From NCBI RefSeq assembly GCF_056746865.1, contig NZ_JBWKMP010000006.1: a stretch of 63,119 bases of DNA; one strand, 5' to 3'. This document shows positions 15,697-60,901 of the stretch, in pieces; position 1 is the stretch's first letter, and each line of letters starts with the position of its first letter. Below the pieces are notes generated by a model, which did no database searches, had not been told where the DNA came from, and was given only the letters and a program-made list of their open reading frames with translations. The DNA comes from a plasmid. The translations under genes and the position numbers were made by a program.

Positions 15697-15869
15697 GACA
15701 AAGTCTCCATTTCTGGAATTTAAATCAAACGGAAAGGTTAAAAATTTATTTGCAGGCGATAAGAGCTAACCAGAGGAATTAGCCGTGTGATAAAAGGATT
15801 GTTGCAGATACGAAAGTCGTTAGAATAGCTGCGGGCGCTTGAGGCTGTATGCCGAAAGCGTTTTGTGGA

Positions 15870-15935
15870 CGGTATACAGCAGAAAGCCCCAGGCGATTTT
15901 TTTATCAATCAACCAAGGGCTCTACTGTAATGCCT
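15870..15935 (-). ncRNA. pndB: candidate PndB (Sok-like) antisense RNA
   Basis: - strand promoter-like TTGCCT-N17-TACTATAAT (15977-15943) directed across the pndC translation-initiation region; boundaries are approximate. Confidence 0.3.
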
Positions 15936-16133
15936 AGACAACATTATAGTAGCCCGATAACCGCCGTAAGGCAATGGAGGGGCTATGATGCCACAGCGAA
16001 CGTTTTTAATGATGTTAATCGTCGTCTGTGTGACGATTCTGTGTTTTGTCTGGATGGTGAGGGATTCGCTTTGCGGACTCCGGCTCCAGCAGGGAAACAC
16101 AGTGCTTGTGGCAACGTTAGCCTACGAAGTTAA
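15930..16133 (+). CDS. pndC: PndC (Mok-like overlapping reading frame)
   Basis: ATG 15930 frame MPRQHYSSPITAVRQWRGYDATANVF... overlaps pndA in a different frame, as in hok/mok. Confidence 0.5.
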   Translation: MPRQHYSSPITAVRQWRGYDATANVFNDVNRRLCDDSVFCLDGEGFALRTPAPAGKHSACGNVSLRS

Positions 16134-16463: not shown

Positions 16464-16614
16464 CGGATTTTCTCTCTGTATTTATGGGTAGTTATCGAAC
16501 TGAATGTGCCAGTTTTTTCAGGAGACGGCAAAGTTGAGATGATTGGTTCTGATTCAGAGCATGAGTTTCCCGGTGTGACGGGCATGTCGGGCGGATTTTG
16601 AGAAACAACAGATG

Positions 16615-16646
16615 TAAAAAAACCGACTGGTGAGGTCGGTTTTTTT
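16615..16646. terminator. bidirectional rho-independent terminator
   Basis: A7-ACCGAC-TGGTGAG-GTCGGT-T6. Confidence 0.55.
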
Positions 16647-16770
16647 ACTGTTCCGTTACAGAGTGGGTGGCTCTGACCGGAGGTCTATAACTGACGCTAA
16701 AAATGATAATTTGTTCTAACTGATTAATGTTCATGCCATAAGTTTACGGGAAAGGCTGACCACCTGATAT

Positions 16771-36394: not shown

Positions 36395-36483
36395 GAGTGC
36401 TTCTCCTGAAAAAAGACGGAAAAAAACCACCGCCGGAAGCCGGGGGTGGCTGGGGGGATAGAAAATCGGGGGAGAAATGTTTG

Positions 36484-39300: not shown

Positions 39301-39755
39301 TTTTTCCGGTTCTCCGGCTGCATGAAGCTGACCTGTAACAAGCCCGGATATTGATGGATTGTTGCTCTCCAGGCTGTCTGGGCTTCAATAAGTCTCAACG
39401 TATTGGAAAACGTCATATCCCGGACGTGAAGGTTGACTGGTAACGGCAGGCGGACACCATTGTAGTTAAACTGCATCCCCCTGACTCTGGCCAGTTCGTT
39501 CAGTAATTCAATTGCATCACCTTCCCAGTCAAAGGAAAGGCGATCGCTGTTAGCTGTCAGAAGATGAGACCCCGTTGAAACCGGAAGTTGGCCGGAAAAC
39601 ACACCTTTGTCCCATAATGTGTACTGAGTGTGCCGGGTAACCGCCACATCAGAGGCAGCACCGTAGTTACGCGGAACAGGAGTATGCTGAGAAGGGGAGT
39701 TGCAGCCAGCCAGAAAAAGGGCGGCAAGACACCCCGCAGGTATAATACGGTTCAT
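39297..39755 (-). CDS. traH: TraH (lipoprotein)
   Basis: 152-aa ORF with lipoprotein signal (FLAGCNS). Confidence 0.7.
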   Translation of the reverse strand: MNRIIPAGCLAALFLAGCNSPSQHTPVPRNYGAASDVAVTRHTQYTLWDKGVFSGQLPVSTGSHLLTANSDRLSFDWEGDAIELLNELARVRGMQFNYNGVRLPLPVNLHVRDMTFSNTLRLIEAQTAWRATIHQYPGLLQVSFMQPENRKK

Positions 39756-39962
39756 AATAATTCCTGAGCAGTTAAATCAGAATGGGATATACCGGTGCTC
39801 CGGTACAGACAGGATGATGTTTGTTTCCGGCTATACTTGCGTTACCGGAAATAAATGCCAGTGTGGCCAGGTAAATAGCCTCATAGTTTACTGAAGGTGA
39901 TTATTCCTGATACTGGCTGGTTGATGTGTCGTCAGACATAAAACGAATATGAGCGTAATCTT

Positions 39963-40110
39963 TAACGCTCCGCGCCGAATCGATCCATGATGGATGACTC
40001 GACGATTTATGAATCGAACGTACCGGCGCTTGTCCCTGAAACAGTTCCCGGCCCTCGTCCGGATAACCTGCAATTCAGACAGGCACATGTGCCCGTACAC
40101 TCTTGTATCT
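39963..40110 (-). repeat. conserved leader module E1 (family of three) upstream of traH
   Basis: ~150 nt with conserved ends shared with 59013-59165 and 60075-60230 (5-prime TAACGCTCCGCGCCGAATCGATCCATGATGGA, 3-prime CCTCGTCCGGATAACCTGCAATTCAGACAGGCACATG) and a divergent middle. Confidence 0.5.
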
Positions 40111-40149
40111 TACTGAGTATATCAGAATTTATGTAAATTCAAATATCCT

Positions 40150-40734: not shown

Positions 40735-40793
40735 GTTATTTAAACTGAATATAAAAATACCCCCGGGTTTAGTGCCGGGGGCGGGGACAGTAA

Positions 40794-57535: not shown

Positions 57536-58219
57536 TCAGTGTAATGTGATAGTCGTCTGCTCCTGTGTTGCACCCCAGACATCTTCTGGCAAGCTGGGCA
57601 GCCCGATAAATAGGGTGTGAAAGAGGGTTTCTCTGCGTTCGATCCCGAATTGATGTTCGTATCCTCTCACCACCTGAAATCCTTCGTCGGAGAATATTAA
57701 CTCTGCCGTTTCCAGAAGCTGCATAGTTTTGCGGTGTAGTGGAGTGATCAGCTGCAACGTAACTGGTGCCCTCATATCGCCTGTCGGTAGAAAACACTCT
57801 TCGGTGCGACTTAGTTGTAGCAGATGGCGTTTCCCGGAACAGGCCCGTTCAATGGATTCATTGAACACCCTCTCAGGCCATGGGCAGACATAAGTGCGCC
57901 AGCCTGCTTTCTGTAATTTACCCAGCGCAGCCCGAAAACGAAACAACGGACATTCCCCGACAGTGGCAGAGCTGAGAAAGAGCGTATTCAGCGTTCCGAT
58001 GATGGGAATATTGCGATCTTTTTCGGTCAATGCTTTTAACGCCATGATTTCGCCAGGGAGACTACTGAACTCAGGATGTCTGCTGGCACCAGAAAGCCAT
58101 TCAAGCAGGTAATGCCGTAATCCGGTTTCACTGGTTATATTGTGGTTTTCCTGTGCCGTTTTCAGGGCATTCAGTGCACACCAGAGCAACTGGCGCACGG
58201 GATGTTCTGTCGTGGTCAT
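57536..58219 (-). CDS. traC: TraC-position regulatory protein
   Basis: 227-aa ORF immediately downstream of traB; symbol by synteny. Confidence 0.6.
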   Translation of the reverse strand: MTTTEHPVRQLLWCALNALKTAQENHNITSETGLRHYLLEWLSGASRHPEFSSLPGEIMALKALTEKDRNIPIIGTLNTLFLSSATVGECPLFRFRAALGKLQKAGWRTYVCPWPERVFNESIERACSGKRHLLQLSRTEECFLPTGDMRAPVTLQLITPLHRKTMQLLETAELIFSDEGFQVVRGYEHQFGIERRETLFHTLFIGLPSLPEDVWGATQEQTTITLH

Positions 58220-58472
58220 GCGAATGTCCTACTGTGAGATGAAAAGAAGACCGGTATCCGTTCTCTCCGCCACACGTGATGGCACGGGCCGGCCTTTGAT
58301 AAAACGAATCAATACTCTGGGGTGAAGCCTTTTATTTCTTTCGCCATTAAGAAATACACGGTTCCATCAAAAGACAGGGGGAGTCCATGGTGGGGATGGC
58401 TTCGTGCAGGCTTCACTCCGGAATATTCTCTTGAATTGAAAAAAGCCCGGCCCGAAGGCCGGGAAATACTGG

Positions 58473-59006
58473 CTATGGGATGTTTACAAGGCGCTCCATA
58501 AAGCCGTGATGTTCGGCATTTGATACCAGTTCCAGGAGCAGGGATATCCTCGACTCAGGCTGGAGAGTATTTTCCATTCTGAGGAGATACTGATATTGTG
58601 CTTTTGTCAGCCATATGCTGGAAGCCGCATTCAGCTCTTCCCTGGCTCCCGGATTTAGCACAGGGTCCGGGTAAATCTTCATTAATCCATCAACAATATC
58701 TTTATTGACGGGTTTTATTTCACCGCCAAACTTCACGAAATCAATGAAGGCGCTATGGCGACGTAATGCCGATACTGGTTGAATGTCAAAATTAGCCAGA
58801 ATAAAAAAGTACCCTGGAAAAATAGCGAATATTCTTTCACGGTAACAGCACCTGGAGTCTGCCCGTCTTATCTTTCTTGTTATTAATGGAGTCCATGGTA
58901 CGACGTTTTGCTCATTCAGCCATGAGAATAAAGATTCTCTGTTTTTGCCGGCTGTATTATATTGCGCAAGATACCAGTTCCGGTTATTCAGGTGTTCTAT
59001 ATTCAC
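58473..59006 (-). CDS. traB: TraB, NusG/RfaH-like transcription antiterminator paralogue
   Basis: ~177-aa ORF with NusG-N-like motifs (NWYLAQY..., FPGYFFILANFD, FVKFGG); no ATG, likely GTG 59006 (TTG 59027 is the alternative). Confidence 0.65.
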   Translation of the reverse strand: MNIEHLNNRNWYLAQYNTAGKNRESLFSWLNEQNVVPWTPLITRKIRRADSRCCYRERIFAIFPGYFFILANFDIQPVSALRRHSAFIDFVKFGGEIKPVNKDIVDGLMKIYPDPVLNPGAREELNAASSIWLTKAQYQYLLRMENTLQPESRISLLLELVSNAEHHGFMERLVNIP

Positions 59007-59012
59007 GAAGTT

Positions 59013-59165
59013 CAACGCTCCGCGCAAAACCGATCCATGATGGACGATTTTGCGATGTCAGGCGAATATGCTAAATCATATGTCTGAAGCAGTGTCCAGC
59101 CCATATCTGGATAAACTGCAGTTCTGACAGGCATATAACCAGCAGACTCTAGTACGTTCTGTATC
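59013..59165 (-). repeat. conserved leader module E2 upstream of and abutting the traB start
   Basis: Same conserved ends as E1 and E3; the - strand end GCGCGGAGCGTTGAA runs into the traB initiation region. Confidence 0.5.
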
Positions 59166-59407
59166 GGTGATTTGGCGAACTCACAGATAAAGAACGGCTA
59201 AGCACTAATATCAGCAATACAGTGGCACAGTATTGTGATACGCGAAATAAAACATCAGCACGTCAGTTCAGAGTAAGGTCGCCATATATCGGGCATGAGC
59301 CAGATACAAATAATTGGGACACCGTCTGAAGTGATTTGCTTTATTAAAGTAACTTGTGCTTGGTGTTTATGTTTATCAATTTGGGATCGCCTGTAAAGTG
59401 CAAAATG

Positions 59408-59447: not shown

Positions 59448-59735
59448 TCACATTTTTTCGTTTTCTTTAGCTGTATTGCTAATCATGAAAACGAACGTTC
59501 GCATCAGCACAGCAGAGCGAAGTGCATCATATCCTTCCAGATTTAAGTTCTTCAGGCTTCGCTTCAGGTAGGTTCGTACCGTTTCGGGAGAAAGCCGACA
59601 GTTCTGAGCAATGGCGTCGTAAGGAACACCCATTGCGTAAAAAACGCAGACTTTAAGCTGGTTTGTTGATAGCTCGGGAAACATGCCTTCCAACAGAGTG
59701 ATGGCCGGGAGTTTCTGTATCAGTTGAGGTGACAT
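59448..59735 (-). CDS. traA: TraA, small LuxR/GerE-family HTH regulator
   Basis: 95 aa from ATG 59735 (GGAGA upstream) with GerE-type HTH (LSTNQLKVCVFYAMGVPYDAIAQNCRLSPETVRTYLKRSLKNL). Confidence 0.65.
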   Translation of the reverse strand: MSPQLIQKLPAITLLEGMFPELSTNQLKVCVFYAMGVPYDAIAQNCRLSPETVRTYLKRSLKNLNLEGYDALRSAVLMRTFVFMISNTAKENEKM

Positions 59736-60074
59736 AGCAAAGGTCTCCGATGACAACTAAAAACGCTATCACTGAGTTCCTACGCTCATTGGTGATAGCC
59801 CAGACGGGGGTAGGAATACCGGCGTCATCGGAAACCGGCCAGGCTAATGCCTGCCCCGCCTGAGCTACCATAGATGACGACAAGAAATACAAGTTCCTGT
59901 CTTTATGGTATGGCAAAAAACGACGCCAAATGAAGAAATTAACTTCTGCGCCGACGATGACTACGCGGGTTCCTACGCCCGATCACAGTTTTGCCTGTGA
60001 CCAGTAAAGGGTACTTAGTATAACGCACCGAGTCAACTAACAGCTTAAAAAACATACAAAAAAGCGTCAAAACT

Positions 60075-60230
60075 TAACGCTCCGCGCCGAAGCGATCCAG
60101 GCGTGATGCTTCTGCTTTGTGGCGTTCGAACATGCTGGTCCATATGCACGAAACGGTGTCTGACCCTCGTCCAGACAATCCGCAGTTCTGACGAACATAT
60201 GAACAAATATGCTCTTGTAGAGGCTGTTGT
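60075..60230 (-). repeat. conserved leader module E3 upstream of traA
   Basis: Same conserved ends as E1 and E2 (TAACGCTCCGCGCCGAAGCGATCCAGG...CCTCGTCCAGACAATCCGCAGTTCTGACGAACATATG). Confidence 0.5.
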
Positions 60231-60279
60231 TACACAATTGGCGGGTTGTGTAACAAATGGTTTTATCATCTAAGAATTA

Positions 60280-60721: not shown

Positions 60722-60797
60722 CCATAAAAGGAAAACCCCCACTATCTTTCTTACGAACTTGGCGGAACGACGAAAGATAGTGGGGGCCTCACAGAAT
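60722..60797 (-). ncRNA. inc: Inc antisense RNA (copy-number control of repZ)
   Basis: Perfect 15-bp stem (60736-60750 / 60772-60786) with loop containing TTGGCG (60759-60764); - strand promoter TTGAAT-N17-TATACT (60832-60806) and T-rich tail after the stem. Confidence 0.55.
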
Positions 60798-60811
60798 ACG
60801 GGTAAAGTATA

Positions 60812-60901
60812 ATGAAACCGTACCAGAGATTCAACCCTGTGCAGTGTATAAATACACGGCACAATCGCTCCGCCATAAGCGACAGCTTGTGGCAGGTCTG
60901 A
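60812..60901 (+). CDS. repY: RepY leader peptide
   Basis: 29-codon ORF MKPYQRFNPVQCINTRHNRSAISDSLWQV ending at TGA 60899-60901, overlapping the repZ start. Confidence 0.65.
   Translation: MKPYQRFNPVQCINTRHNRSAISDSLWQV

Follow-up and report, generated by a model that had tools for sequence, protein, structure and literature searches.

The window, a stretch of 63,119 nucleotides (contig NZ_JBWKMP010000006.1 of assembly GCF_056746865.1), is an R64-like IncI1 plasmid, and the 3 kb around the motif discussed here are 99.9% identical to hundreds of IncI1/I-gamma plasmids. In the annotation of one matching plasmid, the minus strand carries traA, a "NusG family protein" (traB), traC, pilI-pilV, rci, traE-G, and traH-J. 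The repZ gene, whose pseudoknot is matched by Rfam, is divergent from these tra genes. Upstream of traA, traB, and traH lie three copies of a leader module of ~148 nt, each with a short motif at its end (Table 1). The exact 12-mer common to the copies, GCGCGGAGCGTT, occurs three times in the window and only on the minus strand, the sense (non-template) strand of the three genes. A preliminary description of this DNA had given one sequence for the end of all three modules. The three positions and the strand hold, but the copy before traB is one base off: it begins with T rather than G (TGCGCGGAGCGTT) and is otherwise identical to the copies in the traA and traH leaders.

Table 1. Positions of the leader modules, the motif copies, and associated genes, hairpins, and RNAs in the window.
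Feature	Position	Strand	Remarks
sok antitoxin RNA (pnd-type locus)	15833-15990	+	Rfam
AgrB	16614-16694	-	Rfam
Hairpin GAGCGT-N8-ACGCTC, traH copy	39951..39970	-	followed by ATATTCGTTTT; local fold ~-10.3 kcal/mol
traH leader module, traG-traH intergenic region	39960..40107	-	covariance model R1, 144.5 bits; traH ATG at 39755
Motif in traH leader	39964..39976	-	GGCGCGGAGCGTT; 208 nt before traH ATG
traC, essential co-regulator	57536..58219	-	first gene past the terminator; from annotation
Intrinsic terminator directly after traB	58437..58463	-	CCCGGCC-TTCG-GGCCGGG + CTTTTTT; dG -15.8 kcal/mol
traB, RfaH-like NusG paralogue	58473..59006	-	177 aa, GTG start
traB leader module (TACTAGAG ... motif)	59010..59154	-	covariance model R1, 136.6 bits; paralogous to the traA and traH modules
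Motif before traB	59014..59026	-	TGCGCGGAGCGTT; core GCGGAGC at 59017-59023
Hairpin 2 of traB leader	59027..59050	-	AAATCGTCCA-TCA-TGGATCGGTTT; RNAalifold
Hp1 ORF	59653-59916		covers the C4 RNA
C4-like antisense RNA, between traA module and traA	59788..59875	-	Rfam RF01695, 77.5 bits (gathering score 45)
isrK-like element	59916-60001	-	traA leader cassette
a1b1-like element	59962-60014	-	c4-a1b1 target, 32.9 bits, E 4e-6, below gathering
Terminator-like hairpin, traA copy	60061..60083	-	GGAGCGTTAA/TTGACGCTTT, then T-rich tail; local fold ~-11.0 kcal/mol
traA leader module	60072..60219	-	covariance model R1, 137.7 bits; from alignment of the copies
Motif in traA leader	60076..60088	-	GGCGCGGAGCGTT; 340 nt before traA
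repZ pseudoknot	60728-60876	+	Rfam

The three modules are paralogous (nhmmer E values of 1e-57 to 1e-59, with the next match at 0.28), and nhmmer and the covariance model recover only these three in the window. The motif sites are therefore not independent chance matches, and it is within the module that conservation has to be tested. The share of columns without variation among the three copies is 11% upstream of TACAAGAG, 53% in the module, 88% in its last 24 nt (from GGATCG through the motif), and 19% immediately downstream. Similarity between the modules runs from TAC(A/T)AGAG to the motif and then ceases. The module ends at its 3' side with the motif, and the sharp fall in invariant columns just beyond the motif bears out the earlier view of it as the conserved module end. 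Upstream of TACAAGAG, each module also has an inverted repeat, all three different (60227-60256 at traA, ~59165-59206 at traB, and ~40110-40148 at traH); that at traA has perfect 11-bp arms, TTGTTACACAA/TTGTGTAACAA. Each repeat may be an operator of its own, with the LuxR-type TraA as one possible ligand. The leader is common to the three modules, whereas the inputs at the promoter level probably differ.

The GTG start codon of traB follows the motif by 7 nt, so that the gene is directly downstream of one copy, as had been noted. The reading of its product as a NusG/RfaH-like protein was confirmed by several searches. Pfam matches TraB to the NusG N-terminal domain only. The best NCBIfam match is RfaH (TIGR01955) with 42.2 bits, far from the cutoff of 144.5, and TraB is not an RfaH equivalog; a LoaP model matches weakly (17.6 bits). 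The closest solved sequence is PrfaH of IncX3 (9ik0, E value of 1e-11), and E. coli RfaH aligns with TraB by sequence from end to end with an E value of 0.07. An AF2 model (pLDDT 79) consists of an NGN domain and a helical-hairpin C-terminal domain with helices at residues 135-146 and 150-162. Foldseek matched this model to autoinhibited RfaH (5ond, 8pfg, 8pib, and 2oug) over ~160 columns with a TM score of up to 0.81 on the target, and also to PrfaH (9ik0). TraB is thus predicted, from the model, to fold like autoinhibited RfaH. The RfaH residues that contact ops (K10, H20, R23, Q24, T72, and R73) align with N, W, E, Q, H, and S in TraB. Since these residues are not conserved, the specificity must be TraB's own, and binding by TraB cannot be deduced from residue homology; the changed residues would fit a different target site.

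Directly after traB lies an intrinsic terminator, and traC and the pil genes lie beyond it. A GC-rich hairpin with a T-run follows the traB stop codon in 14 of the 19 TraB-family loci and was undetected in the other 5. The stem sequences differ among loci, and hence the feature is conserved rather than the sequence. An antiterminator would accordingly have something to act on. Two further strong hairpins with T-runs on the minus strand, at 36426-36450 (~3.3 kb into the traH unit) and at 40759-40782 (between traF and traG), are terminator-like and may likewise have to be overcome by a processive antiterminator. TraC always follows TraB. It had no match in Pfam, NCBIfam, or the PDB by sequence, and its AF2 model, a confident one (pLDDT 85), had no Foldseek match in the PDB at E values up to 1e-3. 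By its model TraC is an orphan fold, and we have dropped the idea that it is a recognizable DNA- or RNA-binding protein.

Is the motif conserved where the plasmids themselves have diverged? A DNA-level search of PLSDB for diverged traB leaders was uninformative, as nearly all matches were at least 95% identical, and a protein-led search was used instead. TraB homologues were found without regard to the motif by tblastn on plasmids and genome contigs (the latter contributed 7 loci only) and in a set of 5.8 billion proteins with contig look-ups, and the upstream DNA was then read. For all TraB-family genes examined, to a protein identity as low as 26%, the motif core lies upstream. Its consensus is GCG-(G/A/AG)-AGC, with the forms GCGGAGC, GCGAAGC, and GCGAGAGC among clades, and GGATCG stands at the foot of the preceding hairpin, usually 5 to 8 nt upstream. 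The motif reads TCGCGGAGCGTT in the IncK-like lineage (65% TraB identity), GGCGCGGAGCGTT in S. diarizonae (61%) and Klebsiella sp. (48%), GCGCGAAGCGTT in Citrobacter/Enterobacter (53%), GTGCGGAGCC in a clade from Salmonella, Hafnia, Apirhabdus, and C. amalonaticus (51 to 53%), and GGCGAGAGC in Yersinia/Erwinia (52 to 55%). Pectobacterium (50%) and two metagenomic lineages (41%) have GGCGGAGC. A further lineage (36%) has GTGCGGAGCGT ~285 nt upstream of the gene with a small ORF between, and Serratia proteamaculans (26%) has GGCGGAGCC, grouped with the GGCGGAGC type, 54 nt before the ATG. The Serratia protein differs at the ops-contact positions, yet the motif is kept.

A structure-guided covariance-model alignment was made with 14 distinct leaders, taken from diverged plasmids, and among its windows of 12 columns the motif ranks first in conservation. 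The same model finds the leader in 7 of 7 later loci, and all TraB-family loci examined have orthologous leaders. The distance from the motif to the start codon varies from 1 to ~290 nt among traB orthologues and the reading frame is not kept, which argues that the motif is neither coding nor merely a Shine-Dalgarno or ribosome-binding site. Both of these candidates were rejected: the frame of a TTG-started ORF of 184 aa through the motif is closed in orthologues, and the start-codon distance is too variable for a simple Shine-Dalgarno site. We also discarded a metagenome scan with the pattern GGATC-N6-7-CGCGRAGCGTT, which returned mostly chance matches in GC-rich soil contigs, with true leaders only on IncI-like contigs. 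Two low-GC metagenomic contigs, L048 (3740-3840) and L058 (1700-1790), have a repeat in common (TTAGCCCGGATCGGAACGGCGCGGAGCGTTCAAA..GGAGCGAAAGCGGAACCGTGCAGAGCCGG) that matches the pattern by chance and is unrelated to TraB.

The preliminary description spoke of leader modules on the minus-strand operons, each ending in the motif. This is correct for traA, traB, and traH in the window, but diverged plasmids have a single leader, and no second module was found there before traH. In Hafnia, Salmonella, and Apirhabdus plasmids, the leader, traB, traC, pil, traH, traI, and traJ form one co-directional cluster, and in all loci repA is divergent from the leader-traB-traC-pil-tra genes, and traB opens the conjugation operon. 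A single co-directional leader-traB-traC-pil-tra cluster is the ancestral layout. In IncI1, rci, the shufflon, and traEFG are inserted, and the duplicate leader lies exactly before traH, which is the first essential tra gene according to the literature.

RNAalifold with seven leaders predicts three elements, namely, a long hairpin, hairpin 2 with GGATCG at its end, and a mini stem-loop, G-CGC-GGA-GCG-T, in the motif. In a model-guided alignment, 86% of the cells at leader pairs are paired versus 74% in column shuffles (0 of 500 as high), and pairing falls to 28 to 44% when the partners are slid by 1 to 3 columns; both sides have changed at 32 of the 41 pairs. Because the alignment was fitted to the covariance model, these pairing and covariation figures are somewhat inflated. 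Hairpin 2 has compensatory changes at 8 of its 10 pairs, and 87% of its cells are paired. Many pairs in the leader are G-U, and the structure is therefore strand specific. Covarying RNA that runs up to the motif means that the motif is transcribed in the sense orientation, in agreement with its earlier assignment to the non-template strand. The mini-stem is nearly invariant; at its outer pair, 9 sequences have C:G, one has G:C, and one clade has U.C. In DNA form, the mini-hairpin CGC-GGA-GCG is marginal (-1.9 to -2.1 kcal/mol); since its stability does not exceed that of shuffles, we do not count it as support. No Rfam family, JUMPstart included, matched the modules at the gathering score or at E values up to 5. 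The long hairpin contains a nearly invariant single-stranded stretch, GTCAGAACTGCAG, and a GATC (Dam) site in hairpin 2 is invariant apart from Pectobacterium.

How closely does the motif resemble ops? In the best alignment, CGCGG-AGCGTT corresponds to ops (GGCGGTAGCGTG) minus T6 with 9 of 11 positions identical, and the 13-mer is in the top 0.15% of all 13-mers of the window for likeness to GGCGGTAGCGTG. The resemblance noted before is thus real, with the GCGG-AGCGT core in common, but it is modest, and the alignment with an inserted C that was first proposed is poorer than that to ops without T6. Canonical ops (GGCGGTAGnnTG) has no exact match in the window, and its matches with up to two mismatches are at chance level (57 found, 42 +/- 7 expected). 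T6 of ops is the base that RfaH flips into a pocket, and it is essential for recognition. Its loss from the motif may be linked to the changed contact residues of TraB. The Yersinia/Erwinia variant restores the length of ops.

We favor, with a little more than even confidence, the reading of the motif as an ops-like loading site specific to TraB that licenses read-through into traC and the pil genes and into the traH operon; our confidence is no higher because we infer every step beyond the conserved element, the RfaH-like gene, and the terminator. Transcription would start at or upstream of TACAAGAG and pass the structured leader of ~130 nt. From the 3' end of hairpin 2 to the first T after GCGGAGCG there are 12 nt, the spacing of hairpin-stabilized pauses. 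A pause is plausible here, and a polymerase paused at these T's would hold the motif in the transcription bubble. TraB would recognize the exposed core, leave its autoinhibited state, and remain on the polymerase. Modified in this way, the polymerase would ignore the terminator after traB and continue into traC and the pil genes; it would pass in the same way through Rho-dependent stops in the long operons and through the terminator-like hairpins that follow the motif in the traA and traH leaders. The GGATCG block is nearly as conserved as the motif, and thus the recognition element could include hairpin 2 or be hairpin 2. Autoregulation of traB, which had been part of the original proposal, is not evident: the anatomy does not support it, since no terminator lies between the motif and traB. 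According to the literature, traB is needed for transfer or pil transcription in R64, pESBL, pMS7163B, and pESI. No paper with a mapped TraB site for I-complex plasmids turned up in a literature search.

The structured leader also invites a different reading, which we consider unlikely although it is the likeliest of the alternatives to a TraB loading site. The motif could act in RNA, either as the last small stem-loop of the leader, bound by TraB in the manner of LoaP, by TraC, or by the plasmid's ProQ/FinO-like protein, or as an element of attenuation or translation. The RNA is structured, with covariation, over the entire leader as far as the motif, and TraB has the weak LoaP match mentioned above. 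In two of the three IncI1 copies, those of traA and traH, GAGCGT, the 3' half of the motif, pairs as the 5' arm of a hairpin with a downstream ACGCT(C), and a T-rich tail follows. In most orthologues GGAG stands 5 to 12 nt before the traB start, which together with these hairpins makes RNA-level functions possible, and an effect of hfq on traA and traBC expression has been published as "data not shown" (PMC5801416). On the other hand, neither the traB copy nor any other traB-family copy has a downstream partner for the 3' half of the motif, and the motif is conserved in all of them nevertheless. The wide range of start-codon distances and the near absence of covariation in the mini-stem, in which only the outer pair is compensated and only once, also speak against an action in RNA, and the closest characterized relatives of TraB, RfaH and PrfaH, read non-template DNA.

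It is rather improbable that the motif serves as a duplex DNA operator, bound by a host factor, TraA, or TraC, or that it is simply carried along, with no specific role, in a leader that was duplicated recently. In favor of these views, CGC-GGA-GCG forms a short inverted repeat, TraC, whose fold is without a match, is essential, and TraA activates traB expression (PMC5801416). In addition, the three IncI1 copies are paralogous, so that identity within the plasmid alone is weak evidence. Yet a position ~130 nt downstream of the start of the covarying transcript, where the motif lies, is not that of a promoter; plasmids without traA conserve the motif as well; and the separate inverted repeat upstream of each module could serve as the operator. 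Neutral persistence is excluded by the loci with 26 to 41% TraB identity, in which the motif persists in a leader that is otherwise scarcely recognizable.

It is very improbable that the chromosomal RfaH of the host reads the motif as ops. In favor of this reading, Liu et al. claimed an ops element for pTF2 (IncI1) and found that deletion of rfaH abolishes the cefotaxime-induced induction of traF and lowers transfer ~3-fold (PMC6768964); in the window, no tra leader has an ops-like element other than the motif. The claim came with no sequence or coordinates, however, and is traceable to no sequence. In the same paper, mutants in the LPS-core genes waaP and waaQ, which are RfaH targets, show the same phenotype, so that the effect is likely indirect. 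The motif moreover lacks T6 and co-occurs with TraB genes across hosts, and the window has no canonical ops and only chance-level numbers of matches with up to two mismatches.

A loading site for TraB would have parallels in known systems. RfaH and ops of E. coli and relatives, which also serve the tra operon of F, share with TraB and its motif the GCGG-AGCGT core and a NusG paralogue with an autoinhibited helical C-terminal domain, the latter predicted for TraB. In both, the element lies in the transcribed 5' leader in the sense orientation, here before traB-traC-pil, before traH and the downstream tra genes, and before traA. The IncI element differs from ops in lacking T6 or in its loop (GCG-G-AGC, GCG-A-AGC, or GCG-AG-AGC) and in being embedded in a ~148-nt leader with covarying RNA hairpins. 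TraB, unlike RfaH, is encoded by the plasmid and by the first gene of the operon that it would control.

The second parallel is PrfaH/ActX of IncX plasmids. PrfaH of IncX3 is essential for conjugation and binds a non-template ops-like hairpin of 18 nt at positions -42 to -25 of its own 5' untranslated region; the same paper names R64 TraB as a homologue and maps no IncI site (PMC11880322). PrfaH is encoded by the first gene of a type IV secretion system (T4SS) operon, as TraB is by the first gene of the conjugation operon, and in both the paralogue is needed for conjugation. In both, too, the cis site or core lies upstream of the paralogue's gene on the sense strand, with a possible termination signal downstream in IncX, as after traB. 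The sites themselves are unrelated: the IncX site is TTCGGGGTCATCCGAG at -42 to -25, IncX1, X3, and X5 leaders carry TTCGGGGT(C/T)ATCCGAG, and the IncI family carries GCGGAGC instead of the IncX sequence TCGGGGTCATCCGAG. The N-terminal domains of TraB and PrfaH are only ~30% identical. The IncX leader is without a long structured RNA, whereas IncI1 has three copies of the site for three transcription units, and TraB always travels with TraC. LoaP of Bacillus and UpxY of Bacteroides are likewise NusG paralogues dedicated to particular operons, and they depend on a cis element in the leader. The LoaP element is an RNA stem-loop, to which the structured IncI leader would be a parallel, but the match of the LoaP model to TraB is weak. 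Phage lambda N/nut and Q/qut share the same logic, in which a promoter and a loading site precede the antiterminator gene or an early region, then a terminator and a long operon; the proteins and the types of site are unrelated.

The type of switch is most likely one already known, RfaH-like loading, with a new candidate site in the I-complex plasmid family. In E. coli and Salmonella, IncI1 and its relatives in the I complex rank among the principal carriers of ESBL and AmpC genes, and TraB and TraC, which switch on their transfer genes, were first described in 1993. A defined cis site of 7 to 12 nt, a terminator, and three target leaders make the statement that TraB is a positive regulator directly testable, and the motif would be a compact target for blocking transfer. 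Taken together, the sites of RfaH, IncX, and IncI illustrate how NusG paralogues may re-tune a tiny DNA element, here through the loss or replacement of the flipped-out base, which bears on the evolution of sequence-specific elongation factors.

Between its module and the gene, the traA leader contains a complete phage P1-like c4 antisense cassette (59735-60020, minus strand). The loop of the C4-like RNA, ATTCCTAC, is complementary to GTAGGAA near 59975 and again near 59780, immediately ahead of the ribosome-binding site of traA. In pESBL the region of the cassette is called "Hft"; according to the literature, traA is derepressed there by transposon insertions and by point mutations of the drd type, which give rise to superspreader plasmids. 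Destruction of a C4-like repressor probably explains the Hft superspreader region; the two Hft papers mention neither C4 nor any antisense RNA.

One may go further and regard the module as a portable antitermination cassette of ~148 nt, made of a covarying leader RNA and an ops without T6, which IncI1 copied to sites before traH and traA. This extension is speculative, and we would not expect it to hold in full. In it, hairpin 2 would be the pause hairpin 12 nt behind the polymerase, TraB would read the T6-less ops on the non-template strand, and the copies before traH and traA would rewire the split operons. TraB loading at the traA copy would override termination by the P1 c4-like antisense RNA. 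The resulting positive loop from TraA to traB and back to traA could make conjugation bistable and thereby explain both Hft and the drd superspreader mutants. The other RNAs matched by Rfam in the window, namely, sok, AgrB, and the repZ pseudoknot, are ordinary features of IncI1 plasmids.
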